Positions 9,095-31,840 of a stretch of 64,000 nucleotides of DNA are shown here, one piece after another. Every line of letters starts with the position of its first letter. Position 1 is the stretch's first letter. The notes beneath the pieces were generated by a model. It was given only the letters and a program-made list of their open reading frames with translations. It was not told where the DNA came from and ran no database searches. Source of the stretch: Myxococcota bacterium (lineage in GTDB: Bacteria; Myxococcota; XYA12-FULL-58-9; JALHOP01); NCBI GenBank assembly GCA_022842935.1, contig JALHOP010000014.1, positions 58,053-122,052 on the forward strand. The letters are read 5' to 3'. Made by a program: the position numbers and the translations under genes.

Positions 9095-9802
9095 TCAGCC
9101 TTCGTCGTCTTCTTCGCCGTCCGGCTTCTTTCCGAGGGGCAGATTGTCGATGTAACCAGAGTGGCGCAGATACGCGCGCAGTCGGCTGCGCAGCCGTGAC
9201 TCGGCGGTGCGAACCTTCATGCGGGTGCTACCAATGGCCTCCGCCGTCTCTTCTTGGCCGCGACCTTCGGCGAAGCGCAACACGAGCAAGCTACGGTCGT
9301 GCTCATCGAGGTCGCCCATGAACTTGTCGATGAGCGTCTTGAGCTCGGTCGTCTCCATCTTGGTGTCTTGTGATGGAGAGGGCTGGCCGTAGAGGAGCCC
9401 CGTGAACTCCTCGGTGACCTCGTCGTCCATGACGGTGAGGTGGCTGCGCTCATCGGAGCCCGAGATGTATTCACTGAAGGCGATTTCGCGATTGCGGAAC
9501 TGGTTGATCACCATGTTGCGCGCGATCGCGAGCACCCAGTTGGTGAACGAGTAGGCGCCGTTGTACGAGTTGCGCGCCTTCGCTTCGAACGCCCGCCGGA
9601 AGACCTCTTGCACGGCGGACTTCAGCTCACTCGGGTCCTGGATACCCTTGAAGTAGAAGTTGCCGGTGGCGCTGCGGAAGCTGAAGCCCTTGCGCAAGAA
9701 CGACGTCACACCCGGCGCGTAGTGCCGGTAGACCTCGTCCATCGCCTTGCGATCGCCCTTCTTGAAGGCCTCGAGGAGCTTTGGATTCTTGGCAAGAAAC
9801 AT
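9095..9802 (-). CDS. RNA polymerase sigma-70 family (ECF-type) sigma factor
   Basis: 235 aa. Region-2-like FTNWVLAIARNMVINQFR and region-4 HTH LLVLRFAEGRGQEETAEAIGSTRMKVRTAESRLRSRLRAYL. Confidence 0.8.
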   Translation of the reverse strand: MFLAKNPKLLEAFKKGDRKAMDEVYRHYAPGVTSFLRKGFSFRSATGNFYFKGIQDPSELKSAVQEVFRRAFEAKARNSYNGAYSFTNWVLAIARNMVINQFRNREIAFSEYISGSDERSHLTVMDDEVTEEFTGLLYGQPSPSQDTKMETTELKTLIDKFMGDLDEHDRSLLVLRFAEGRGQEETAEAIGSTRMKVRTAESRLRSRLRAYLRHSGYIDNLPLGKKPDGEEDDEG

Positions 9803-10022: not shown

Positions 10023-10721
10023 ATGACCGACCGCCCCGAGCTCACCGATCGCCAGCGCGAAGTTTATGAGTTCATTCAAGATCGCATTCGGGCCTGGGGC
10101 TATCCGCCAACGATCCGCGAGATCGGCGAGCACCTCGGTATCCGCTCCACCAACGGCGTCGCCGACCACCTCAAGGCGCTAAAGCGTAAGGGTTATTTGC
10201 AGCAGCAAGACATGAAGTCGCGCACCCTCATGCTGGTCAACGAAGAGCCGACCAACAACAAGCGCTCGGAATCCGTCGGCAGCAACGTCGTGCGCGCCCT
10301 CTTCCCGTCCAGCGGTAGCGGTCGCAGCCTCGAGATCCCCATCCTGGGTCGGGTCGCCGCAGGTGAGCCCATCCTTGCCGAGGAGCACGCCGAGGGGTCG
10401 GTCGTCGTCGACTCGATGTTGGTCGGCGACGGCAAGAAGCTCTTCGCCCTCAAAGTCGTCGGCGAGTCCATGATCGACGACGGCATCTACGACGGCGACT
10501 ACATCTTCGTACGCAAGCGGGCCCACGCCGAGCCCGGCGAGATCGTCGTCGTCATCATCGAGAACGAAGCCACCGTGAAGCGATTCTACCCCGAAGGCGA
10601 TCGCATCCGCCTGCAGCCGGCCAACGCCAGCATGAAACCCATTTACGTCGACAAGAAAGACTTCAAGCAGGTTCAAATCATCGGACTCGTCGTTGGAGTC
10701 TATCGCCGCCTGCCCGGCTGA
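10023..10721 (+). CDS. lexA: LexA repressor (SOS response transcriptional repressor / S24 peptidase)
   Basis: 232 aa. N-terminal winged HTH (YPPTIREIGEHLGIRSTNGVADHLKALKRKGYL), Ala-Gly cleavage site (VAAGEP), catalytic Ser in GESM and Lys in VKRF. Confidence 0.9.
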   Translation: MTDRPELTDRQREVYEFIQDRIRAWGYPPTIREIGEHLGIRSTNGVADHLKALKRKGYLQQQDMKSRTLMLVNEEPTNNKRSESVGSNVVRALFPSSGSGRSLEIPILGRVAAGEPILAEEHAEGSVVVDSMLVGDGKKLFALKVVGESMIDDGIYDGDYIFVRKRAHAEPGEIVVVIIENEATVKRFYPEGDRIRLQPANASMKPIYVDKKDFKQVQIIGLVVGVYRRLPG

Positions 10722-10747: not shown

Positions 10748-11248
10748 GTGACAGACATCGGCTCGTCACCAATCGCCGATACCCGGGACAGCCAGTCAAC
10801 AAACGGGGTCCTCGTGGGTGATTTGTCTGTTCCGAAGCCGTCCACTGCCACAGCACAGTCGACCGCGACGCAGGCGACCAGTGGCGCGGCGTTGCAACTC
10901 CCTATGCCGCCAGAGCACCCCAGCTTCGCCGTCGTCGCTCTCAAGGTCCTGCGCGCGCAGAAGCCGAATGCGTTGGTTGATCAGTTCGCGACCGAGACCG
11001 GCATCGGCATGCTCCTGAATGGCAAGTCGGGCCGCATCAAAGAGGTTGCCAACATCACGGTCGGTCCCGACCGCATCAGCTGCAATGTCACGGTCGCCGA
11101 ATACAGCGCATTCGATGGCGGGTTCACGCCGAATGGCCCGTCGAGGACCTACGCCGTCGTCATCCAAGGCGAGACTCTCGCGACGCTCATCGCAGCCCTG
11201 AAGGCCGAGCCGCCCATGCACTCCGGCAACGCCATCGTCTTCGGCTAA
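10748..11248 (+). CDS. Hypothetical protein
   Basis: 166 aa with good GC3 bias; the overlapping minus-strand ORF is Arg-rich and less protein-like. Confidence 0.5.
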   Translation: MTDIGSSPIADTRDSQSTNGVLVGDLSVPKPSTATAQSTATQATSGAALQLPMPPEHPSFAVVALKVLRAQKPNALVDQFATETGIGMLLNGKSGRIKEVANITVGPDRISCNVTVAEYSAFDGGFTPNGPSRTYAVVIQGETLATLIAALKAEPPMHSGNAIVFG

Positions 11249-11283: not shown

Positions 11284-11478
11284 CTACTCGTCCCCGTGCC
11301 CGTTGAGACTGTCATCGCCATCGGGCGCCGCTAGGCGTGCGTCGATCTCGTCCATGAGCTCGAGGAGCTCGTCGACGCGTGACTCGAGCCGAGACAGGTC
11401 GTCTTTGGTGACCAAGCCGGGGTTCCCGGCAACAAGCCACTCCTTGAGTGTGTCGAACATCGATTCGTTCGCGGCCAT
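11284..11478 (-). CDS. Small hypothetical coiled-coil protein
   Basis: 64 aa, acidic helical sequence (LSRLESRVDELLELMDEIDARL). Only weakly supported. Confidence 0.3.
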   Translation of the reverse strand: MAANESMFDTLKEWLVAGNPGLVTKDDLSRLESRVDELLELMDEIDARLAAPDGDDSLNGHGDE

Positions 11479-11555
11479 GCCCGAAACCTACGGCGGGTGG
11501 CAGTCCTCGTCAAACGTTGCACCTTCGCGCCCGACATGCGACGGAACGCGCCGCC

Positions 11556-12485
11556 ATGGCGTTTCTCCCCAGGCTTCGCGTCGTCACCGGTAAAGGTGGA
11601 GTCGGTAAGACCACCGTCGCGGCGGCCCTCGCGCTGGCAGAGGCGCGTCGCGGCAGACGCGTTTTGCTCGCCGAAGTGAACGGGCGTGACCGAGCTTCGC
11701 TTCTCCTCGGCGTCGAGCCTACCGGCAGCAAGCTCACAAGCGTGCTCCCAAACATCGCGCTCGTCGACATGAACCCACGCGACACGCTGCGCGAGTACGT
11801 ACTGCTCACGTTCAAGTTCGAGACCGTCTACAAAGCGGTCTTCGAGAATCGCGTGGTGAAGAATTTCCTGCGGCTCACCCCAAGCCTCGGGGAACTGATG
11901 ATGCTCGGGAAGGTCTGGTACCACGAACGCGAACGCGAGGACGACCGGCCCCGCTTCGACGTCATCGTGCTCGACGCACCAGCCACAGGGCACGCCATCG
12001 CGATGTTGCGCGCTCCTGGCGTGGTGCAAGCAACGGTACCGGCGGGCCCGCTCCGCGAAAACGCACGCTTGATCGATCAACTGCTTCGCGACACCAAACG
12101 CTCTACCGTCCACGTCGTCACGACACCGGAAGAAATGCCTGTGAACGAGGCGGTGGAAATAGAGCGTGCCGTCTGCGACGAGCTCGGCATGCGAATCGGC
12201 ATCACGTTCTTGAACCAGCGCGTCACCGCGCTGCCGCCAGAGATCGTACCAACGCTAAACGTGTCCGCCAAAGAAGACAAACGGCTTACCGACGCAGCGC
12301 ATGTCCTGCATGCGCGTGAAGTGCGGCGGCTTGCCGGCGAGGAGAATCTTCAGCGCCTTCCGCACAAGATGTTGCGTGACTCAGTGAGTATCCCACGCAT
12401 CGTCGGTGCTGACTTCGGTCTTCAAAGTCTCGAAGCGATTGCGGACGTTGTCGCGAAAGCCCTCGCGCGCGAGGTCGAGCAATGA
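11556..12485 (+). CDS. ArsA/Get3-family P-loop ATPase (anion-transporting ATPase-like), paralog 1
   Basis: Start chosen at internal ATG (MAFLPRLRVVTGKGGVGKTT). P-loop GKGGVGKTT and ArsA-type signature DAPATGH. Confidence 0.8.
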   Translation: MAFLPRLRVVTGKGGVGKTTVAAALALAEARRGRRVLLAEVNGRDRASLLLGVEPTGSKLTSVLPNIALVDMNPRDTLREYVLLTFKFETVYKAVFENRVVKNFLRLTPSLGELMMLGKVWYHEREREDDRPRFDVIVLDAPATGHAIAMLRAPGVVQATVPAGPLRENARLIDQLLRDTKRSTVHVVTTPEEMPVNEAVEIERAVCDELGMRIGITFLNQRVTALPPEIVPTLNVSAKEDKRLTDAAHVLHAREVRRLAGEENLQRLPHKMLRDSVSIPRIVGADFGLQSLEAIADVVAKALAREVEQ

Positions 12486-13609
12486 GTCGACCGATCTGGG
12501 AAGGTCGCAAAGTCGTCGTCAACGTCGGCACCGGGGGCGTCGGCAAGACCACGGTCTCGGCGGCGATGGCCGTTGCGGCCGCAGCGAGTGGGCGCCGAAC
12601 CCTGGTGATGACCATCGACCCCGCGCGACGCCTCGCGAACGCGCTTGGTTTGCCGTCGTTCGGCAACGTGGAGCACGAGATCGAGCAGGAGCAGCTCGCG
12701 CCTTACGGCGTCCAGCTGAAGGCGCCCCTGTGGGCGATGATGCCCGACGTGAAGAGAACCTTCGACGAGCTCGTCGAGCGCTTCGCTCCGAACGACGAGA
12801 AGAAGCGCGCCATTCTAGGAAACCGCATTTATCAGCACTTCTCGACTGTCCTCGTCGGCTCGCACGAGTACGCGGCGGTCGAAAAGCTCCACGAAGTGTA
12901 CGCGAGCGGCAAATACGATCTCATCGTTCTCGACACACCTCCATCGGGAAACGCGGTCGACTTTCTCGAGGCGCCGAGCCGCATCATCGACTTCCTCGAG
13001 CAAGACACGGTGCAGTGGCTCGTGAAACCCTATGCGGCTGCCGGTCGCTTCTCGCTGAAGCTCCTCGACGTCGGCAGCTCCTTCATCAGCAAGAGCGTGG
13101 GCAAGCTCGCTGGCGCCGAGACCCTCCGCGAGCTCGCCGAGTTCGTACTTGGGTTCCAGGGCATGTACGAGGGTTTCCGCGAGCGCTCGCGTCGTGTCCG
13201 CGAGCTGCTGGCATCCGACGAGGTCGCCTTCAATCTCGTATCGAGCACGCAGCGCGCGCAGCACGACGCGATGTTCCGCTTCAAAGAAGAGCTCGCTACG
13301 GAGGGCTTGAAGGTCCGGGCCCTGGTCGTCAATCGCGTGCGCAACGTGCCACCCGGCGCGGCCACCCCAAAGACGCTCGAGGCGGTACGAGCCGCCCTGC
13401 AGACCTTGGCCCCAGGCGCCGCCGAACAAGCGCTGAGCGCGCTCGCCGAGGAAGCAACGCTCGCCTCAAACGACCGCGACGCCATTCAGAACTTGTCCGA
13501 GCGCCTGGGTCACGTCAGCACGATTCTCTTGCCCGAGCTCGCCAGTGACGTGCATGACCTCGCTAGCCTCTCGGCCCTTCATTCCTATTTCCTCCAAGGC
13601 GCGACATGA
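12482..13609 (+). CDS. ArsA/Get3-family P-loop ATPase, paralog 2
   Basis: 375 aa. ATGA start/stop overlap with paralog 1. P-loop GTGGVGKTT, signature DTPPSGN. Confidence 0.8.
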   Translation: MSRPIWEGRKVVVNVGTGGVGKTTVSAAMAVAAAASGRRTLVMTIDPARRLANALGLPSFGNVEHEIEQEQLAPYGVQLKAPLWAMMPDVKRTFDELVERFAPNDEKKRAILGNRIYQHFSTVLVGSHEYAAVEKLHEVYASGKYDLIVLDTPPSGNAVDFLEAPSRIIDFLEQDTVQWLVKPYAAAGRFSLKLLDVGSSFISKSVGKLAGAETLRELAEFVLGFQGMYEGFRERSRRVRELLASDEVAFNLVSSTQRAQHDAMFRFKEELATEGLKVRALVVNRVRNVPPGAATPKTLEAVRAALQTLAPGAAEQALSALAEEATLASNDRDAIQNLSERLGHVSTILLPELASDVHDLASLSALHSYFLQGAT

Positions 13610-14562
13610 GCGGCCGAAACACAACACCTGAACCAGCCGACAATCGACCACCCATGGTGTTCGTGCGTCTCGCCGCCCTTCTCGTCGCCTTTTTGGGGGC
13701 AAGTGTCGCCCACGCCGGTCCCCGTGATTTCTCGCTCATCGGCCTCGGGCGCCCCCAGAGCAACGAGCTTTCCGACCCCTCCGTGGCCCGCTATCGGGCC
13801 TTGGCGACCGAGCTCGCGTTCGTGGTCGGCCCGCGGGTACTCGCGGGCGCGGACAGTCTGGGTGCCGCCGGCTTCGAGCTCGCCTTCGCTCTCAACTACA
13901 CCGGCATCAGCGGCAGCGCGGACTACTGGCAGGGCTCACCTTCGGCCCCTGTTTTCGAGAGCGCGGTCAGCGGCGGTACGACGCCGGGCGGCTTTTGGTC
14001 ACCGACCTTGCAAGTTCGCAAGGGCCTTCCATTTTCGACCGACCTCGCGCTCAGCATGGCTTACCTCGGCTCGAGCTCGATGGTTGCCCTCGGGCTCGAC
14101 GCCAAGGTGGGCCTCTTCGAGGCTTATTTGCCGCGTTATGTTCCGGACGTCGCCCTGCGCGCCGCAGTGGGCCATCTCGTCGGCGCGAGCGAGCTGACGC
14201 AAACGACGCTCGAGTTCGACGTGCTCGCCTCATACACCATCATATGGAAGGCGGCGGTTCGCCTCACACCATCGCTTGGCATTGGCCGCATGCTGGTTCG
14301 CACGAGCAGCGGGGTCCTCGACGCGACGCCGGCCGAGGTGGTTGACCCCGCGGATCAGACGTTCGCGCCCGGAGGCTCACTCTATCGCTTCCCGACACTT
14401 GGCTTCGGTGACAATCACATCACGCGCCTGTTCTTGGGATGCCACGCCGTGTATGGCTTCGGATTCGCGGGCTACTTTCTCGACCTCGGCTTCGTACCGT
14501 CGGGCATCGGGGCCGCCAGCACACACGTCAGCCACACCCTCAAGGTCGGTCTCAACATCTGA
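13606..14562 (+). CDS. Secreted hypothetical protein (N-terminal signal peptide)
   Basis: 318 aa. ATGA overlap with the preceding ATPase. Signal-like MVFVRLAALLVAFLGASVAHA; Gly/Ala/Ser-rich beta-type composition. Confidence 0.65.
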   Translation: MSGRNTTPEPADNRPPMVFVRLAALLVAFLGASVAHAGPRDFSLIGLGRPQSNELSDPSVARYRALATELAFVVGPRVLAGADSLGAAGFELAFALNYTGISGSADYWQGSPSAPVFESAVSGGTTPGGFWSPTLQVRKGLPFSTDLALSMAYLGSSSMVALGLDAKVGLFEAYLPRYVPDVALRAAVGHLVGASELTQTTLEFDVLASYTIIWKAAVRLTPSLGIGRMLVRTSSGVLDATPAEVVDPADQTFAPGGSLYRFPTLGFGDNHITRLFLGCHAVYGFGFAGYFLDLGFVPSGIGAASTHVSHTLKVGLNI

Positions 14563-14693
14563 TGCAGGTGCCTTATCTTCCAGAGCTCCTGCTCACCCTG
14601 TTCATCCTTGCGATGGTCTTCAGCGCGCACAATCTGCGACGCCTCGGCGACAACTTCGGCCGTCTTCTAGAGCGGACATTCGGCAAGCGCTAA
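14562..14693 (+). CDS. TatA/TatE-like mini-protein (single TM helix + amphipathic helix), 43 aa
   Basis: ATG overlaps the TGA of the previous gene (TGATG). MQVPYLPELLLTLFILAMVFSAHNLRRLGDNFGRLLERTFGKR matches the TatA pattern (TM helix, hinge, L-R-x-L-G-x-x-F/L-G...F-K), but hinge Gly is replaced by Ser. Confidence 0.4.
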   Translation: MQVPYLPELLLTLFILAMVFSAHNLRRLGDNFGRLLERTFGKR

Positions 14694-14700
14694 AAGAGTT

Positions 14701-16620
14701 TTATTGTTCGGCGGGCTCGCTGGGAGCGTCTTCGTCGGCGTCGCGCGCCTTGCGTTTCATCTTCGTGCGCTTGGCCTTCATCTTGGCCTTGTTCTGCGAG
14801 AGGTCATGCTCGACGGCTGGCGACTTGCTCGACCCATCGTCGTTCGGCGCGACGACCTGGGGCGGCGCGGGTTGCGCGGGCTCCGCTGGCCGAGCCGGGG
14901 CGGTCACCTGAACGGCTGGCGCGGTCTGCACCAAGTGAACACGGTGGCGGCTCGAACGCAGCTCGCGGGGGGCGGGAGAGACGACCACCATGAAGGGCAA
15001 ACGCTCGCCCGGCGCGATGGTGAGGGGACCGTTCTGCTTTGCGGCGAAGGCGCGACGCGCGGAGTCGGGTGTTTCGAGACGAGCCAGCTCAGCGACGCTC
15101 AAGACAACACCGAGCGCCCCACGCGCTTCGGCGAGCAAGGTGTCGTCTTGCTTGCGGACCTGGGCGACGATCTCGAGGTTCGAGACGGGCTGCGTGCTGG
15201 TGTTCTTCACCTCACCCGTGAACACGAGGATCTTGCCATACGCCGTGGGATACAAGACCGACCGCATCGAGGTGGGCTGCACGCCCAGAATTCCTGACGC
15301 GCCTTCGATGCCATCGCCGCGCACGATGCGTTCCGGATCACGTAGCACTTCGATGTCGAGCTGCCCACTGCGGACCAACGCGAAAACAGCGAGCCCAAGG
15401 AGCACGAGCGACAGCATGACGGTCGTGGCGGCGCGAACGAAACGTGTCGCCGAGGTCACCTCGGGTGGGGGTGCCGCGCGCGGGACCCCGTCCTGGGTCA
15501 ACCCCTCGCCGAGCCCACCGCGGATGGGTCGTGTCTCACGACGCTGCTCGAGGCGGCCAAGCTCGAGGTTGTGAACCGCCGTCTGCCCCTCGAAGGCGTT
15601 GATCGCGGGCCGTGTGAGCTCTTGCGGGGGCGAAAAAGTGCCGTCCGACGACAAGCCACCGCTCATCAACAGCTCGGCGTCGTCCTGCTGAGGTACGGCG
15701 CGCGCCATGAGCGCGGGGTCGATGCGACCGACGAATGTCTCCATGCCACCGCCAGCGGAGAGCATCGCGCTCTGCTGATGTGCCTCGTTGGCAGGCCGGG
15801 TGAGCGACGGCACCTGGATAATCGACGTACGAGCCTGCGTGATGTGGTCTGGGAACGCAGGCACGTTCGACAGCGACTGCGCGCCAGGGCCCGATGCGGC
15901 GGAAAGCGTGATCGGCGGAGCGCTGAGCGACTCGGCGATGAGCGACGGCGTCTGACCCACTTTGGTCACGGACCGTGAGATCTCGCCCGCCATGGGCTGC
16001 GGCGCCGCAGACTCACGCATCAAGCCGCGGTGGTCGATTGTCGGCTCGTCTTCGATGGACACGACGTCATCGTCATCGATGCTGATGACATCGTCGTCGG
16101 TGACCGCAGTCGCCGTGTCGTCGCTGATGTCGATATTCATGAAGTCATTGCCGAGACTCATGCCGTGGGACGCCGGAAAGGCGACACCGCCATGCGACGC
16201 GAGCCCGGGGGCGACCGCCGCCGAGACATCATCGAGAGTCATGCTGAGTCGCGAGGGCGGATCGACGAGCGTCTCGACGTCATCGAAGGTCGTTGGGACC
16301 GGAGCACGGCTTGCAGGCCCGACCATATGCACCGCGGTCTTTGCGTCATGTGGCGACGTATCGAACGCGAAGGTCGGTGGTAGCGTCTCGTGTGCGGTGG
16401 TGTCTCCCTCGAGCGATACCGGCGCACTCAGGCTCTGCTGTTGCGGATTGTCCACTTTAGTGGACGCGAAAGGGTCGAGCGCTTCGACGTCATCGTCATC
16501 GTCGGCATGGACGACGAAGCCGTAACTACACACCGAGCAAGTCACGCGCGCGCCACGGTCGCTCAGACGGCGCGCGTCGAGGCGAAACCTAGTGGAGCAC
16601 TGCGGACATTGAACGATCAT
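14701..16620 (-). CDS. MJ0042-type zinc-ribbon protein with TM segment and C-terminal DUF3426-like domain
   Basis: Start set at MIVQCPQCSTRFRLD...CSVC (zinc-ribbon CxxC...CxxC). Long acidic low-complexity linker, TM AATTVMLSLVLLGLAVFALV, C-terminal beta-rich domain. Confidence 0.7.
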   Translation of the reverse strand: MIVQCPQCSTRFRLDARRLSDRGARVTCSVCSYGFVVHADDDDDVEALDPFASTKVDNPQQQSLSAPVSLEGDTTAHETLPPTFAFDTSPHDAKTAVHMVGPASRAPVPTTFDDVETLVDPPSRLSMTLDDVSAAVAPGLASHGGVAFPASHGMSLGNDFMNIDISDDTATAVTDDDVISIDDDDVVSIEDEPTIDHRGLMRESAAPQPMAGEISRSVTKVGQTPSLIAESLSAPPITLSAASGPGAQSLSNVPAFPDHITQARTSIIQVPSLTRPANEAHQQSAMLSAGGGMETFVGRIDPALMARAVPQQDDAELLMSGGLSSDGTFSPPQELTRPAINAFEGQTAVHNLELGRLEQRRETRPIRGGLGEGLTQDGVPRAAPPPEVTSATRFVRAATTVMLSLVLLGLAVFALVRSGQLDIEVLRDPERIVRGDGIEGASGILGVQPTSMRSVLYPTAYGKILVFTGEVKNTSTQPVSNLEIVAQVRKQDDTLLAEARGALGVVLSVAELARLETPDSARRAFAAKQNGPLTIAPGERLPFMVVVSPAPRELRSSRHRVHLVQTAPAVQVTAPARPAEPAQPAPPQVVAPNDDGSSKSPAVEHDLSQNKAKMKAKRTKMKRKARDADEDAPSEPAEQ

Positions 16621-16713
16621 CGTCGTGCACCAGGGAGACCCGTAGCCGGGTCTCACCAACGCCTGTCGAAGTTATAAATCAGCAGCCAGCTTGCGCAAAC
16701 TAACTGATCAAGT

Positions 16714-19212: not shown

Positions 19213-19821
19213 CTAGCGCACGGTGATGGCAGTGGAGCGAAAGCCATCGACGCCACGGGGGTGCACGACTTCGGCCTTGGTACCAGCGACCACGAGGCGA
19301 ACGTCGAGCGGGTTCTGCGCGAGGAGGGCGACCAAATCAACCAGCGTATCACCCGCGCTATGGCTTCCGCGCGTCGCAGGCCACCGATCGGCATCGACCA
19401 TGATCACCAGCGTCGTATCCAGCCGGTGTGCAAGCTGCGAGAGGGCTTCGCGGATCTTGTGAGCGCTGCCGCCAAGAGCGCGTAAGAACGCCCCCTTCTC
19501 GCTGTGACCCTGGCGCACAGCGGGTACGCCGAGATCGAAGAGCGCTTCGAGAAGACCCGCAAGCGACGTCGGGTCCGCCGCGTTGCGCCCCGTCATACGC
19601 TCGTGCAGTCGCGCCAGTGTCTCGAGGCCCCAGTCTGCGTTGCGCGTCAGCGCGTGACCGATGCACTGGCTTAGGGTCCGGCAAACGGTCAGCGAGCTGC
19701 CCGAGATGGTGACGAGCGTCGTGCCGCGGCTAAGTGCTTTCGTCGCGAGGGCGATCTCGCGCGGCGAAAACACGGGCTCGTTTCCGTAACGAGCTTCACG
19801 AACGAGCTCAATGGCGCGCAT
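19213..19821 (-). CDS. Hypothetical protein (not Pal-like)
   Basis: 202 aa with good GC3 bias. No signal peptide or OmpA motif. Located downstream of tolB. Confidence 0.5.
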   Translation of the reverse strand: MRAIELVREARYGNEPVFSPREIALATKALSRGTTLVTISGSSLTVCRTLSQCIGHALTRNADWGLETLARLHERMTGRNAADPTSLAGLLEALFDLGVPAVRQGHSEKGAFLRALGGSAHKIREALSQLAHRLDTTLVIMVDADRWPATRGSHSAGDTLVDLVALLAQNPLDVRLVVAGTKAEVVHPRGVDGFRSTAITVR

Positions 19822-19914: not shown

Positions 19915-21240
19915 TCAATAGCCGAGCCGAGGCCCCCACGACGGCGTCTCGACGTCGCCCTGAACGCGGGCGATGAGACGCTGATTATTGCCGTCGACGT
20001 CCATGATGTAGAGGCGTCGGCCGCCCGCGCCGGCCCGGGTCGACACGAACGCGATGTGGTGACCGTCGGGCGAGTGCGTCGGCGACTCGTTGTTGCCTTC
20101 GTCCTGGGTGAGCCGCGTGATGACGCCAGTGTCCGGGTCGACCACGAAGATGTCGTACTTCATGCGCTCGTCGCGCGCCGTGAAGGCGATTTGCCCGCCA
20201 GCGCGCGGCGACCAGTCGGGCTCTTGGTTGTAGTTGCCCTGGAAGGTCAAGCGGCGGGCATTCGAGCCATCGGCGTTCATGACGTAGATGTGCGGGTTGC
20301 CGGCCCGCGACGAGACGAACGCAATGCGTGAGCCGTCGGGGCTCCACGTCGGCGAGACGTCCTGGCCCCATGAGTCGGTGAGACGGCGGACGTTACCGCC
20401 GCCAACATCCATCACGTAAATCTCCGTGTTGCCGTCGACCGACAAGGTCAGCGCGATGCGGCGCCCGTCAGGTGAGACTTGCGCTCCAGTGTTCAGGCCA
20501 CGTTGGTTGGAGAGGTTCTTGGCGTTCTGGCCGTCGAGCCCGATACGCCACAGGTCGGGATTTCCGTCGGCGTACGAGGTGTAGATGATGCCCGCGCCAC
20601 CCGGGAGCCAGGCAGGCAAGAGCGACAGAATGCCCTCGGCGGTGATGCGACGCTCGGCGCCCCCGTCCATGTCGGCGACGAAGACGGCCTTACCGCCACG
20701 CGTCTTGCGCACGTAAGCGAGGTGCGACGAGAAGATGCCCTTTTCGCCTGTGAGCGTCTCGATGAGCTCATCGAGAAACTTATGGATGGCGCGTGAGCCG
20801 CGGTCGATGCTCTCGTCGTACTCGCGGGCCAGTACTTCACGCTGCGCGACGACGTCGTAAAAGCGCAGGTTGATCTTCGCGTTTTTGCCAGCCACCGCGA
20901 CGGTGCCGCGGATGAGGCCCGAGGCGCCGACATTGGTCCAGTTCTGGAAGTTGGGCTTGGTGACCGGCTCCTTGTCGGGAGCGAGGTAGGTGTTCGGCGG
21001 AACAAGCTCGAGCGAGCGCGCCAGGTCGACGTCGATCTGCAGGATGGCCGAGAGCTCTTTGGCCACCTTGTTGGCGTCACCGCCAGCGGGGACGATGTCG
21101 GGAGCCGCCACTGGATAGGGACGGAAGTTCGCGCCGCCAACAGCGATTTGCATGCGTTGCGCGGACGCGGGGACCGCGACCAAGAGCGCGCCGACGACCA
21201 AGATAAGCTTACGGAACGATTTCGTCATGACGGCTCGCAC
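19915..21240 (-). CDS. tolB: Tol-Pal system beta-propeller protein TolB
   Basis: 441 aa. Signal peptide, N-terminal TolB domain and repeated propeller blades (DVSPTWSPDGSRIAF, NESPTHSPDGHHIAF). Alternative start at Met5 (21228). Confidence 0.85.
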   Translation of the reverse strand: MRAVMTKSFRKLILVVGALLVAVPASAQRMQIAVGGANFRPYPVAAPDIVPAGGDANKVAKELSAILQIDVDLARSLELVPPNTYLAPDKEPVTKPNFQNWTNVGASGLIRGTVAVAGKNAKINLRFYDVVAQREVLAREYDESIDRGSRAIHKFLDELIETLTGEKGIFSSHLAYVRKTRGGKAVFVADMDGGAERRITAEGILSLLPAWLPGGAGIIYTSYADGNPDLWRIGLDGQNAKNLSNQRGLNTGAQVSPDGRRIALTLSVDGNTEIYVMDVGGGNVRRLTDSWGQDVSPTWSPDGSRIAFVSSRAGNPHIYVMNADGSNARRLTFQGNYNQEPDWSPRAGGQIAFTARDERMKYDIFVVDPDTGVITRLTQDEGNNESPTHSPDGHHIAFVSTRAGAGGRRLYIMDVDGNNQRLIARVQGDVETPSWGPRLGY

Positions 21241-21350: not shown

Positions 21351-22073
21351 TTAGGGCGTGAACGTGACTTCGAACCCATCTTTGCGCGCTTGTTCGGCGA
21401 TCTCGGCGTCAGGGGGAGAGACCTTGGCGCACTTCTGCGCGGCGTTCTTCACCGCCGAGTCGAACCGCTGGTCGCCGCTCGACTTGGTGATCTCGAGGTC
21501 GGAAAGCCGGCCGTCTTTCTGGACGCTGATCGCGATCTTGGCCGACTTACCCGCAGCCTGCGCCGGCGACATCCCGAGCAGATCCCAGTGCGCCTTCATG
21601 CAAGCGTAGACCTCGCTCGCAAGCTTGTTGCCGGCGAGCGCCTTGTTGGTCGTGCCGTACTGCGAACCGTCTTCGCGACCCTCGGGCTCTTCCTGGTTCT
21701 TCAGGCGGTCGAGCGCGTTCTGCACCTTGCTCATCTGCGACAAGCGGTCCTTGGCCGATGGCGTCGCGTCTTTGGGAGGCGTGGGCTTCGCCTGCGGGGG
21801 CGGATCGGTCGGGGCTGTCTGCGGTGGCGGGTCCGCCTTTTCTGGCGGCGGTGGCGGCTCGTCCTTGCGCGGCAACAGGTCTTTGGGTCGCTCTTTGCCG
21901 AGGCGTACGAGCTCAGTGACGATGACATTCTGAGCGGGCTTACGGCTATGCGCGGACTTGATGGTGACGAGCGCGACGATGACCACGCCGACATGCGCTA
22001 TCACGGACACCAAGATCGCCCGGCTTAGAGACGTCGACTTTCGGCGTCGGTTGTCGACTTGTCCGAGCTGCAT
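21351..22073 (-). CDS. TonB/TolA-family energy transducer (TolA-like by context)
   Basis: 240 aa. N-terminal TM (ILVSVIAHVGVVIVALV), Pro-rich spacer, C-terminal TonB-type domain. Confidence 0.7.
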   Translation of the reverse strand: MQLGQVDNRRRKSTSLSRAILVSVIAHVGVVIVALVTIKSAHSRKPAQNVIVTELVRLGKERPKDLLPRKDEPPPPPEKADPPPQTAPTDPPPQAKPTPPKDATPSAKDRLSQMSKVQNALDRLKNQEEPEGREDGSQYGTTNKALAGNKLASEVYACMKAHWDLLGMSPAQAAGKSAKIAISVQKDGRLSDLEITKSSGDQRFDSAVKNAAQKCAKVSPPDAEIAEQARKDGFEVTFTP

Positions 22074-22632: not shown

Positions 22633-23466
22633 CTAAAAAAAGTGACGCTTGATGATGTTGAGAAAGTCAGCCGAGAAGTTCTGCATTTCGGTGTCGAGCA
22701 CTCGGATCTTGGCAATGAAGAAGTTGTACGCAATGACCGCGGGGATCGCCGCGAAGAGCCCAAAGGCCGTGGCCACCAGCGCTCCGCCGATACCCGGCGC
22801 GACCGTCGCGAGATTCGCATTTCCCATACGTCCAATGTCTTGGAACGAGGTCATGATTCCGACGACCGTCCCCAACAGGCCGATGAACGGCGAGGACGAG
22901 GCCACGGTCGCGAGGAACGGGATCATCGACTCGAGGCCAGTCAGCTCGGCGGCAGCGGTACGGCGCATCGAGCGCTCGACGCTCTCGAGGTCGCCCATGG
23001 CTGTTTCGCCGACATGCCCGGAGGCCGGGGCGGGCTCCTCTTTCTTCTTGAGCTTGGCGAGCTCCACATAGCCCGCGCGAAAGACCTGCGAGACCGGGGA
23101 GGCCGGTAGGGCGTCACTCTTCTGGTAGATGGCGTCGAGGCGCTTGCTGCTCCAGAACATATCGAGGAACGATTCGCTGTCGCCATAAGCCCGGCGAATG
23201 GTGCGCCACTTGAAGTAGATGATGGCCCAGCTCACGATCGAGAAGATGATGAGCAGCAGCATGACCGCTTTTTCCGGGAGGCCGGCGGTCATCATGGACT
23301 CGATGAAGCCGTAGCTGGGTGGCGCGACCGCCGGGGCCGGTGGCGTCTGCGCGAGCAAAAGCAGGGCAACGTACAGGGCGTTCATGACGAAGCGCGCTAC
23401 CACGCCCGCGCGCGAATTAGCAAATTGGGCCCCCAGAGGTGGCCACGATTTGCCTTTGAAGGGCAT
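22633..23466 (-). CDS. tolQ: MotA/TolQ/ExbB-family proton channel protein
   Basis: 277 aa ORF; probable start at internal Met (MNALYVALLLL, about 23385). Three TM helices and conserved C-terminal region (IGLLGTVVGIMTSF...APGIGGALVATAFGLFAAIPAVIAYNFF). Confidence 0.8.
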   Translation of the reverse strand: MPFKGKSWPPLGAQFANSRAGVVARFVMNALYVALLLLAQTPPAPAVAPPSYGFIESMMTAGLPEKAVMLLLIIFSIVSWAIIYFKWRTIRRAYGDSESFLDMFWSSKRLDAIYQKSDALPASPVSQVFRAGYVELAKLKKKEEPAPASGHVGETAMGDLESVERSMRRTAAAELTGLESMIPFLATVASSSPFIGLLGTVVGIMTSFQDIGRMGNANLATVAPGIGGALVATAFGLFAAIPAVIAYNFFIAKIRVLDTEMQNFSADFLNIIKRHFF

Positions 23467-29857: not shown

Positions 29858-31840
29858 ATGCATTCGCTCCTTGGACAAGCTGCGGTCTTGCTCGCGCTCC
29901 TCGCGGCTAGCTTCGGGGTTGTGGTGGGCTACATCGGCGGGGCCCGCCAAAGCCTGCGTCTGTTGAACCTCACCGAGCGCGCGGCCTACCTCTTCGCCGG
30001 GGCGATGGTCTTCGCCAACGTGGTCATGATGCGTGCCCTGCTCGCTCACGACTTCGAGGTGAAATACGTCGCGCAGGTCGGCAGTCGTGCCTCGCCCACG
30101 TGGGTCACCATCGTCTCGCTCTGGTCGTCACTCGAGGGTTCGATCTTGTTCTGGGGCGCGATCCTCGGGGTTTACGTCGCCGCCTTCACGTATTTCAACC
30201 GCCAGGCCTACCGCGAATACATGGCCTACGCGCTCGCCACCATTCTCTTCGTGGCCGCGTTTTTCACCCTCCTCGTGGCTGGCGTCGCGAATCCGTTCAC
30301 CGCGATCTCGCCCATACCGCCGGACGGCCCGGGGCCGAATCCGCTATTGCAGAATCATCTTTTGATGGTCATCCACCCGCCCTCGCTCTATCTGGGCTAC
30401 GTCGGCATGACGGTGCCGTTCGGTATCGCCGTGGCGGCGTTGTTGCGCGGCCGGCTCTCCGAGGGCTGGCTCAAGCCGCTGCGTCGTTGGACGATGATTC
30501 CTTGGACCTTCTTGTCGATCGGCATCGTTCTCGGCGGCTGGTGGGCCTACGAGGTACTTGGCTGGGGTGGCTACTGGGCGTGGGATCCGGTCGAGAACGC
30601 TTCGCTTCTGCCATGGCTCGCCGCGACCGGTTACCTCCACTCGACAGTCGTGCAGGAGCGTCGCCGCATCCTGAAGGCCTGGACCCTCTCCCTCGTGCTC
30701 GGCGCGTTCCTGCTGACCATCCTGGGCACATTCATGACGCGCTCGGGTGTGTTCAACTCGGTTCACTCGTTCACGCAGTCGCCAATCGGGCCCGTGTTCC
30801 TCGCGTTCCTCGCCATCGTCATGATCGGCTCGATCGGCCTCCTCGTTGGGCGCGCGCACTTGCTCGAGAGCGAAGGGCGCATCGAGGCGGTGCTGAGTCG
30901 CGAGAGCGCCTTCTTGCTCAACAATCTCATCTTCGTCGTGCTCACCTTCACGGTGCTCCTGGGCACGGTGTTTCCGCTGGTGACCGAAGCCGTGCGCGGC
31001 ACCCAGGTGAGCGTGGGCGAGCCCTACTTCAACCGTATGGCCGTGCCTATCGGCCTCCTCATGGTCTTCATGATGGGCGTGGGTCCGGTCTTGCCTTGGG
31101 GAAAGCCGCAGAGCAGCGAGGTCTTCCGCAGCTTTGCGGTCCCATTGGCCGCGCTGGTTGTGGTGATGGTGGCCTGCTTCGCCTTCGGGGTGCGCGAGTG
31201 GCTCACGCTCTTCACCTTCGGACTCTGCGGATTCGCGATGGCCGTGACCCTCCGCGAGATGGTCGCTCCAGCGCGCGAGCGGCGAAAACGGCGTCAAGAA
31301 GGGTTCGTTTCCGCGCTCGCCGGCAGCATCGCGGCCAACCGCAGGCGCTTCGGGGGTTACGTCGTTCATATCGCCGTCATCGTCATCGTCGCTGCGGTGT
31401 CAGCCTCCGCCACTTACAAGGCGACGGTCGAGGCATCGCTCAGCCCAGGCGACAGCTTCCGCGTCGGCAAGTACACGCTCACCTATGATCGGGGTGGCTT
31501 GAAGAAACAGGAACACCGCGACACCGTTTTAGCGCACATGACGGTCAAAGATGGGGATAAGATCGTCGGGTACATGGCGCCCGCGCTCAACTACTATGAC
31601 CGTCAACGTGAGCCCATCGGCACACCCGACGTCTTCACCATCGGACAAAACGATCTGTACCTCTCGCTTCTGTCGATGGAGCGCGACGGCAGTCGTATCG
31701 GTGTCCGCGCCTTCACCATCCCGCTCGTGGTCTGGCTCTGGTACGCGATTCCTCTCCTCGCGGCCGGCTCGCTCATCGCCCTATGGCCAAAGCGCCGGAC
31801 GCAGACCGCCACGTTACCCGAAGGAGCGGCCACGACATGA
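29858..31840 (+). CDS. ccmF: Cytochrome c-type biogenesis protein CcmF (heme lyase subunit)
   Basis: 660 aa polytopic membrane protein with WGGYWAWDPVEN (WWD) motif. Confidence 0.9.
   Translation: MHSLLGQAAVLLALLAASFGVVVGYIGGARQSLRLLNLTERAAYLFAGAMVFANVVMMRALLAHDFEVKYVAQVGSRASPTWVTIVSLWSSLEGSILFWGAILGVYVAAFTYFNRQAYREYMAYALATILFVAAFFTLLVAGVANPFTAISPIPPDGPGPNPLLQNHLLMVIHPPSLYLGYVGMTVPFGIAVAALLRGRLSEGWLKPLRRWTMIPWTFLSIGIVLGGWWAYEVLGWGGYWAWDPVENASLLPWLAATGYLHSTVVQERRRILKAWTLSLVLGAFLLTILGTFMTRSGVFNSVHSFTQSPIGPVFLAFLAIVMIGSIGLLVGRAHLLESEGRIEAVLSRESAFLLNNLIFVVLTFTVLLGTVFPLVTEAVRGTQVSVGEPYFNRMAVPIGLLMVFMMGVGPVLPWGKPQSSEVFRSFAVPLAALVVVMVACFAFGVREWLTLFTFGLCGFAMAVTLREMVAPARERRKRRQEGFVSALAGSIAANRRRFGGYVVHIAVIVIVAAVSASATYKATVEASLSPGDSFRVGKYTLTYDRGGLKKQEHRDTVLAHMTVKDGDKIVGYMAPALNYYDRQREPIGTPDVFTIGQNDLYLSLLSMERDGSRIGVRAFTIPLVVWLWYAIPLLAAGSLIALWPKRRTQTATLPEGAATT

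Follow-up and report, generated by a model that had tools for sequence, protein, structure and literature searches.

TatA is the component of the twin-arginine translocase (Tat) that lets folded proteins through the membrane, and its hinge glycine, its FK motif and its 12-residue helix are central to mechanistic models of the process. The TatA/TatE family (PF02416, TIGR01411), the pore-forming or membrane-weakening subunit of this translocase, is the closest known system to the small TatA-like gene of 43 codons described here, which lies at positions 14562..14693 on the forward (+) strand of a 64,000-nucleotide (nt) stretch of DNA from a Myxococcota bacterium (GenBank assembly GCA_022842935.1, contig JALHOP010000014.1, positions 58,053 to 122,052), referred to below as the window. 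The gene was delineated from the sequence and the list of open reading frames (ORFs), from its conservation and ratios of nonsynonymous to synonymous change (dN/dS), and from its homology to TatA. The reading favored here, to which we assign a probability of roughly 0.6, is that it is a real gene encoding an inner-membrane TatA descendant of 43 amino acids (aa) that most likely still serves as a TatA-type subunit.

In TatA proteins, position 8 holds the residue that contacts the polar cluster of TatC (PMC5201420), and the rule is a polar residue followed by exactly 12 hydrophobic residues (PMC9424591). Alcock et al. called the hinge residue G21 invariant and discarded sequences without it (PMC5201420), while the FK motif with its terminal Phe (F39) is essential (PMC13186574). 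For E. coli TatA, a preprint (bioRxiv 10.1101/2025.09.29.679310, citing Greene et al. 2007) reports that Cys at G21 or G29 abolishes activity. In the related TatB, the hinge is X-G-P, the terminal Phe is usually absent and the chain is far longer than in TatA (PMC5201420).

The product of the small ORF, MQVPYLPELLLTLFILAMVFSAHNLRRLGDNFGRLLERTFGKR by direct translation, resembles TatA in having a single short N-terminal helix, with Glu8 followed by 12 hydrophobic residues and a Phe before the hinge. Its Ala22, Leu25, (L/I)28-G29-D30 and G33 align without gaps to TatAs of the Myxococcota type (FGA.KLP..GD.LG), and it further shares with TatA an amphipathic helix that has a Phe close to the end, a positive-inside distribution of charges and positional orthology with Pfam-positive TatAs. 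Unlike TatA, it lacks the hinge Gly, Pro26, the FK motif, the acidic patch and the C-terminal tail; the members of its subfamily are 41-43 aa long, and when aligned with canonical TatAs they extend barely past the amphipathic helix. The gene also differs from tatA in lying in an operon with Get3-type ATPases, and it scores below every curated cut-off. With TatB (TIGR01410) the small protein shares Glu8 followed by a short helix and then an amphipathic helix, and its N-terminal ELLL is reminiscent of E. coli TatB. The protein does not otherwise fit TatB, as it has no G-P, its 43 aa compare with more than about 100 aa in TatB, and its matches are of the TatA type, with no TatB model among its NCBIfam matches.

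Descent from TatA shows in comparisons of profiles. When ten 41-43-aa sequences of the subfamily were compared with nine canonical TatAs, hhalign gave a probability of 97.4% and an E value of 1.2e-11 over 36 columns, and a hidden Markov model (HMM) built from nine canonical TatAs found the small ORF as its sole match in the six frames of the window (E 2.8e-5). A close-family profile, made from the small ORF and its three closest relatives and searched against 1.84 billion representative proteins at E<=1e-3, returned seven matches: two from the family, two repeat-protein artefacts and three proteins of 51-55 aa (P0006, P0007 and P0009). On PF02416, whose cut-off is 21 bits, P0006 scores 38.7 and P0007 37.1, and the profile thus reaches TatAs that are Pfam-positive (E 2e-5 to 4e-5 among 1.84e9 proteins). 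A word-indexed search with a wider alignment revealed a continuum of sequences leading from the type found in the window to ordinary TatAs. The two artefacts, P0005 and P0008, are unrelated repeat proteins that were caught through their periodic AHDVRRTGDGLS and CHNLRDLPDSIGYL units, which shows that short profiles gather repeat proteins. Neither the small ORF nor the close-family profile matched any PDB sequence significantly; the best PDB match of the profile was the BH3 peptide of Bim (LRRIGDEF, E 0.11), and we regard its likeness to residues 25-32 (LRRLGDNF, 14634-14657) as chance between two amphipathic helices.

Gene position points the same way. Immediately upstream of the small gene lies a 318-aa ORF (13606..14562, +) for a secreted protein with the predicted structure of an outer-membrane β-barrel of 10 strands. 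It belongs to no Pfam or NCBIfam family, and its start may instead be Met17 at 13654 by comparison with relatives of 302 aa. P0006 and P0014, the latter a TatA_B_E-positive homologue found by the word-index search, occupy the same position of the same gene cluster as the small ORF, and Pfam-positive TatAs stand in this slot after the barrel gene in L012, L017-L019 and L020. Among the relatives of the upstream gene whose context is visible, the most distant is the barrel homologue P0035 in L020 (37% identical); 25 nt after it comes a canonical TatA of 71 aa that scores 62 bits on PF02416. Given this shared cluster slot and the canonical TatA in L020, the small ORF is the positional orthologue of the ordinary tatA found after this barrel gene in distant relatives. 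The TatA-like layout of transmembrane helix, hinge and amphipathic helix, which the initial annotation had read from the sequence alone, is therefore well supported as homology by the hhalign comparison, the transitive search and the positional orthologues; for the check proposed there, a search with TatA-family HMMs, the curated profiles turned out too weak, and it is the profile-profile comparison, the transitive search and the gene position that speak for TatA homology.

Five cluster-linked short TatAs of 42-57 aa (P0006, P0007, P0011, P0014 and P0015) from Myxococcota-like metagenome contigs are 44-50% identical to the small ORF, and three of them (P0011, P0014 and P0015) carry a precomputed PF02416 label. 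Like the small ORF, they have an MP.LPE N-terminus, a short or absent tail and a degenerate FK motif; unlike it, they keep an F-G-A-N-R-L-P hinge and are without the AHNLRR and RLLERTFGKR motifs of the subfamily. Among these five, the same cluster position as that of the small ORF was shown for P0006 and P0014 only.

The boundaries of the gene are well defined. The ORF overlaps the stop codon of the upstream gene as had been proposed, runs from 14562 to 14693 with a TAA stop codon at 14691-14693, and encodes a product identical to the one then quoted. At the TGATG junction, the TGA of the upstream gene (14560-14562) and the ATG of the small ORF (14562-14564) have 1 nt in common. An 84-aa entry of the ORF list covering this gene does exist, but it is the ORF from the first ATG (14439) and not, as had been said, a stop-to-stop frame, which extends over 14412-14690. 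The start at the ATG within TGATG held up, since the upstream extension is not conserved, being closed by a stop three codons before this ATG in L001-L006 and L009; a longer ORF from the ATG at 14439 was ruled out for the same reason. The GTG at codon 3, which would give a 41-aa form comparable to P0003 and P0012, is disfavored by the conserved stop/start overlap at the ATG, and P0010 has Ile at this codon, favoring ATG 14562 over a GTG start. The description of the ORF as unannotated is true only in a relative sense, as the same ORF had been predicted as a gene in other assemblies (P0001-P0004, P0010, P0012 and P0013). In particular, P0001, which is 91% identical, was named 'Sec-independent protein translocase protein TatA' by the Joint Genome Institute (JGI), and since JGI labels such an ORF TatA, the small ORF is not new as a gene. 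Direct reading gave no evident Shine-Dalgarno sequence upstream of it. The stop/start overlap, or a 1-nt gap (TAAAATG in L003), is conserved in the relatives, which indicates translational coupling to the upstream gene as the most likely way in which the small ORF is translated.

Conservation of the reading frame in syntenic loci, the other check that had been proposed, was found throughout: the ORF is intact in every related locus fetched and is under purifying selection. An identical or similar ORF stands at the same place in all related loci (L001-L011, L014, L024 and L025), and the indels of the DNA alignment flank the ORF closely, just ahead of the start and just past the stop, with none in between. 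Among five distinct DNA sequences of the small ORF, variable columns are distributed over the three codon positions as 11/6/23. Pairwise dN/dS is 0.05-0.33 in the frame of the small ORF, at proportions of synonymous differences (pS) of 0.34-0.46, versus ~0.7-4.7 in the other two frames, and the excess of synonymous changes gave a binomial p of ~2e-5 in each of three pairwise comparisons. The GC content at third codon positions (GC3) is 0.73, compared with 0.71-0.81 in neighboring genes. The small protein is 91/81/56/50% identical to its relatives, against 90/79/57/41% for the upstream barrel protein, and it diverges more slowly than the products of the zinc-ribbon and kinase genes described below; this pace, equal to that of the upstream gene and slower than that of the latter two, implies that selection on the small ORF is not relaxed.

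It could be supposed instead that the segment is a non-functional spacer between convergent genes, conserved as a terminator, as an RNA element or by chance, and that its TatA look is a generic hydrophobic-then-basic pattern. Such a reading could draw on the missing Shine-Dalgarno sequence, on curated TatA models that fall short of significance, on the distance of only 7 nt between the stop of the small ORF and that of the convergent gene, and on the last ~25 nt, which are near-invariant even at synonymous sites. However, the substitution pattern is frame-specific and indels are confined to the outside of the ORF; an RNA element or terminator was ruled out, as the small-ORF region has no Rfam match and its 3' end folds less stably than shuffled sequences (z = +1.78); and neither the hhalign E value of 1.2e-11 to TatA nor the Pfam-positive TatAs at the same position in related clusters would be expected of a spacer. 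The non-functional reading, extremely improbable in our estimate, is largely refuted by the tests run, and the small ORF is very probably a real gene of TatA descent. Terminator-like hairpins are at most marginally more frequent than expected from shuffling (4 vs 1.4 +/- 1.3). The near-invariant 3' segment comprises the last ~8 codons, GAGCGGACATTCGGCAAGCGC (14666-14690, +), and the loci that share it differ by ~40% at synonymous sites elsewhere in the small ORF. With the stop of the convergent gene 7 nt past that of the small ORF, there is no room between the two for a conventional terminator.

Several features of TatA have been kept. Glu8 (14583..14585, +), at the polar position preceding the TatA hydrophobic stretch, is invariant in 11 subfamily sequences. 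It is followed by the short TatA-type transmembrane stretch Leu9-Phe20 (14586..14621, +), exactly 12 mostly hydrophobic residues, LLLTLFILAMVF, of which Thr12 alone is mildly polar. An acidic residue with exactly 12 residues to the hinge position is kept in 16/16 sequences compared, as are Ala22, Leu25, a basic amphipathic helix and the restriction of positive charges to the C-terminal side. Codons 22-43 (14625..14690, +) encode a basic amphipathic helix, AHNLRRLGDNFGRLLERTFGKR, as judged from the hydrophobic moment (0.77-0.79 in 18-residue windows), the alignment and an AlphaFold2 (AF2) model, and the protein ends with this helix, without an acidic or unstructured tail. By direct reading the protein has positive charges only after the hydrophobic stretch, which implies an N-out/C-in topology as in TatA; the N-terminus, short and without positive charge, is presumably periplasmic.

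Under the favored reading, the protein would insert N-out/C-in and act as a TatA-type subunit, its TatC partner being encoded at another locus. Docking to the polar cluster of this TatC would fall to Glu8 within the membrane, and oligomers of the short helix and the surface-lying amphipathic helix may thin the membrane so that folded, twin-arginine-tagged proteins could pass. A hydrophobic stretch of 12 residues is too short to span a normal bilayer. The best argument for Tat function is the strict keeping of a charged residue in this 12-residue membrane segment, since a charge within a membrane segment is costly unless it is used.

A number of observations weigh against this reading. The small ORF has no Pfam match at E<=10, and in NCBIfam it scores 13.7 bits (E 0.034; cut-off 53.9) on TIGR01411 (tatAE) and 13.8 bits on NF002813; its close relatives P0001-P0004 likewise remain below the curated TatA cut-offs, and none of the seven subfamily members scanned reaches the Pfam cut-off of 21 bits for PF02416 (TatA_B_E). 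The hinge glycine described as invariant in TatA is missing: the protein has F20-S21-A22, with Ser21 encoded by AGC at 14622..14624 (+), and the subfamily alignment of 11 sequences has six Ser, two Gly, two Thr and one Ala at this position, so that 9/11 members carry S, T or A. The Gly-to-Ser replacement noted by the initial annotation is thus real, and the position is variable across the subfamily. The motif residues listed there (Ser21, L25, R26, L28, G29, F32, G33, F40, G41 and K42) are all correctly placed, but Gly29 and Gly33 are not conserved in close relatives, since five subfamily members have A, S or T in place of G29, and G33, present here, is S or A in L007 and P0002. Substitutions at the hinge and at G29 are of the kind reported, in the preprint cited above, to inactivate the E. 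coli protein. In addition, P26 of the TatA Leu-Pro dipeptide is replaced by Arg, the FK motif has become F-G-K and lies one residue further from G33 (Phe40 itself being invariant), and the acidic patch after the helix is lacking. AHNLRR and RLLERTFGKR, which are not TatA motifs, are invariant or nearly so in the subfamily, and this hints at a new interaction. The AF2 model, based on an alignment of eight sequences, has a continuous helix over residues 6-40 (mean predicted local distance difference test score 83.9) with no kink; as AF2 is unreliable for short membrane peptides and the prediction had no canonical TatA control, this is only a hint that the helix junction may be stiffer than that of TatA. 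Finally, the 64-kb window contains no tatC, tatB or second tatA, and its ORFs no convincing twin-arginine signal peptide, both of which are uninformative for the whole genome. Because the hinge Gly, G29, P26 and FK have been lost and new invariant motifs gained, the chance that the small protein still works in Tat export is, from its sequence features, about even.

The operon could point to a different role. Upstream of the barrel gene are a BagA-like ATPase gene of the Get3/ArsA family (11553..12485, +), with 133 bits on NF053622 BagA (cut-off 400), and a BagB-like one of the same family (12482..13609, +), with 91 bits on ArsA_ATPase and 277 bits on NF053621 BagB (cut-off 521). The listed ORF of the BagA-like gene starts with GTG at 11448, and relatives of 301-310 aa fit an ATG at 11553. 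As BagA and BagB are their best NCBIfam models, the two ArsA-like genes are a Get3-fold heterodimer-type pair. Like BagA/BagB (Rv3679/Rv3680) of Mycobacterium tuberculosis, they are two adjacent, overlapping genes of the Get3/ArsA fold; unlike them, they score below the equivalog cut-offs (400, 521). A limited literature search found no mycobacterial BagAB beside a TatA-like gene and an outer-membrane barrel.

Overlaps of ATGA, ATGA and TGATG link these genes in the order ATPase, ATPase, barrel and small ORF, four genes in all, and the ATPase pair is conserved with the barrel and TatA-like genes in those relatives whose contigs reach that far upstream. The loci of P0006 and P0014 have the same cluster, consisting of two ArsA-like genes, a gene for a secreted protein of ~290 aa without Pfam family, the small gene and a convergent zinc-ribbon gene, and the arrangement is conserved from 91% down to ~41-50% identity. 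From these overlaps and this conservation it may be proposed that the protein is a neofunctionalised TatA derivative that is out of Tat export and works with the BagA/BagB-like ATPase pair, with the barrel, or with both. It could then be a membrane anchor or receptor for the ATPase dimer, or a client that needs the ATPase for post-translational insertion, since a chain of 43 aa leaves the ribosome only after termination. The Get3/ArsA fold of the ATPases is in keeping with this proposal, as are the hinge and G29 changes and the new invariant motifs, which are under strong purifying selection. Furthermore, the loss of TatA hallmarks tracks the cluster: L020, the sole locus without visible ArsA-like genes beside the barrel, has a canonical TatA, the cluster-linked P0006 and P0014 have lost FK, and the subfamily has then also lost the hinge Gly, P26 and the tail. 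It is also plausible that the genome has another, housekeeping copy, given that canonical TatAs of related lineages (L015 and L016) occur in unrelated contexts.

On the other hand, the two features associated with docking at TatC and with thinning of the membrane, the membrane-embedded Glu8 and the stretch of exactly 12 residues, are conserved without exception. L020 is the only outgroup, its contig breaks off 1.7 kb ahead of the barrel gene, and ArsA-like genes may follow further up; and gene neighborhood by itself is no proof of interaction. Moreover, the limited literature search gave no link of BagAB-type ATPases to TatA-like proteins, and none of the fetched loci showed a second tatA. Co-option in this broad sense, the main rival of the favored reading, is therefore considered rather unlikely, and its more specific form, in which the TatA-derived mini-protein would have left the Tat pathway and would now be a receptor or client of the BagA/BagB-like pair in the four-gene barrel operon, unlikely.

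Retention of Glu8, of the 12-residue stretch and of the amphipathic helix fits continued interaction with TatC and would suit, besides the favored reading of a TatA-type subunit, a second and specialised TatA paralogue that still works with TatC for some substrates or conditions while a canonical TatA encoded elsewhere does the bulk of transport, in the manner of TatE, TatAc or C. jejuni TatA2. Divergent TatA paralogues are described as common (PMC4148689), subsets of the TatA family have been described (PMC5201420), and the databases contain canonical TatAs that begin in a similar way, with MPGLPEL... (P0017 and P0021). However, positional orthology with the canonical TatA of L020 suggests an ancestral tatA site and no duplicate, and there is no second copy in the window, nor any tatC, tatB or other tatA in any fetched flank. 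A specialised paralogue is accordingly quite improbable.

The combination of features is unusual: 41-43 aa, mostly no hinge Gly, an altered FK motif, sub-threshold scores and a fixed place in a BagAB-like/barrel operon. The subfamily comprises the shortest TatA-type proteins that the analysis met. In a result attributed to Lee and colleagues in 2002, about 49 residues of E. coli TatA are said to suffice for function, and if that figure is right, 41-43 aa is, to our knowledge, at or below the shortest functional TatA. If the small protein still transports, it would be a natural test of which TatA features transport requires and could qualify as the smallest TatA found in nature. Otherwise, a TatA would have been recruited for another job beside Get3-type ATPases, whose bacterial role is poorly understood, and a function as their receptor or client would provide a first functional handle on these ATPases in bacteria. 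Glycine-less TatAs are missed by the thresholds of Pfam and NCBIfam and are filtered from alignments that require G21 (PMC5201420), and for both reasons Tat inventories of Myxococcota-like lineages may be wrong. The value of these findings is limited by the origin of the lineage, all relatives of the small ORF being from metagenomes, and by the rarity of the subfamily (~10 distinct sequences).

Downstream, the small gene faces a convergent gene (14701..16659, -) for an MJ0042-type zinc-ribbon protein of 652 aa with a weak DUF3426 match. This protein has an N-terminal MJ0042-type ribbon, a long low-complexity middle part and one predicted membrane segment; its gene keeps the convergent orientation towards the TatA-like gene throughout the relatives and evolves fast (73% to 27% identity). 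Synteny in the relatives extends over an ECF-type sigma factor, LexA, the cluster, the zinc-ribbon/DUF3426 gene and a Ser/Thr kinase, the first two lying at 9095-9802 and 10023-10721 in the window. ORFs without family are found at 10748-11248 and 19213-19821. Tol-Pal genes come next in the window and were found again in L003 only; they include TolB (19915-21240, -), a TolA/TonB-C-like gene (21351-22073, -) and TolQ/ExbB (22633-23466, -). The multi-transmembrane proteins of the window are TolQ, two ATP-binding cassette (ABC) permeases and CcmF (29858-31840). The ORF at 38659-39603 (-) contains ERRRAFIFAGSLVGCFCLGLVLGLALAPQTP, with a twin-arginine-like motif (ERRRAFIF); as the arginine pair lies ~50 residues from the N-terminus and is followed by a very hydrophobic segment, the motif more likely belongs to a membrane anchor than to a Tat signal.

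A genome scan with the upstream barrel protein retrieved three close relatives only. The relatives are labelled as metagenome-assembled genomes (MAGs) of Myxococcota, with one 'Bdellovibrionales'. The latter, L007 (CAZAER010000013.1, 'uncultured Bdellovibrionales'), has the same synteny and proteins 78-92% identical compared with L008 and L009 ('Myxococcota'), and at least one MAG label is probably imprecise. A metagenome scan with the subfamily motifs yielded only a contig identical to the window. The public metagenome contig L024 (LNFM01065041.1; 2,202 base pairs) corresponds to positions 14233-16434 of the window at 100% identity, and the same organism is therefore present in that data set.

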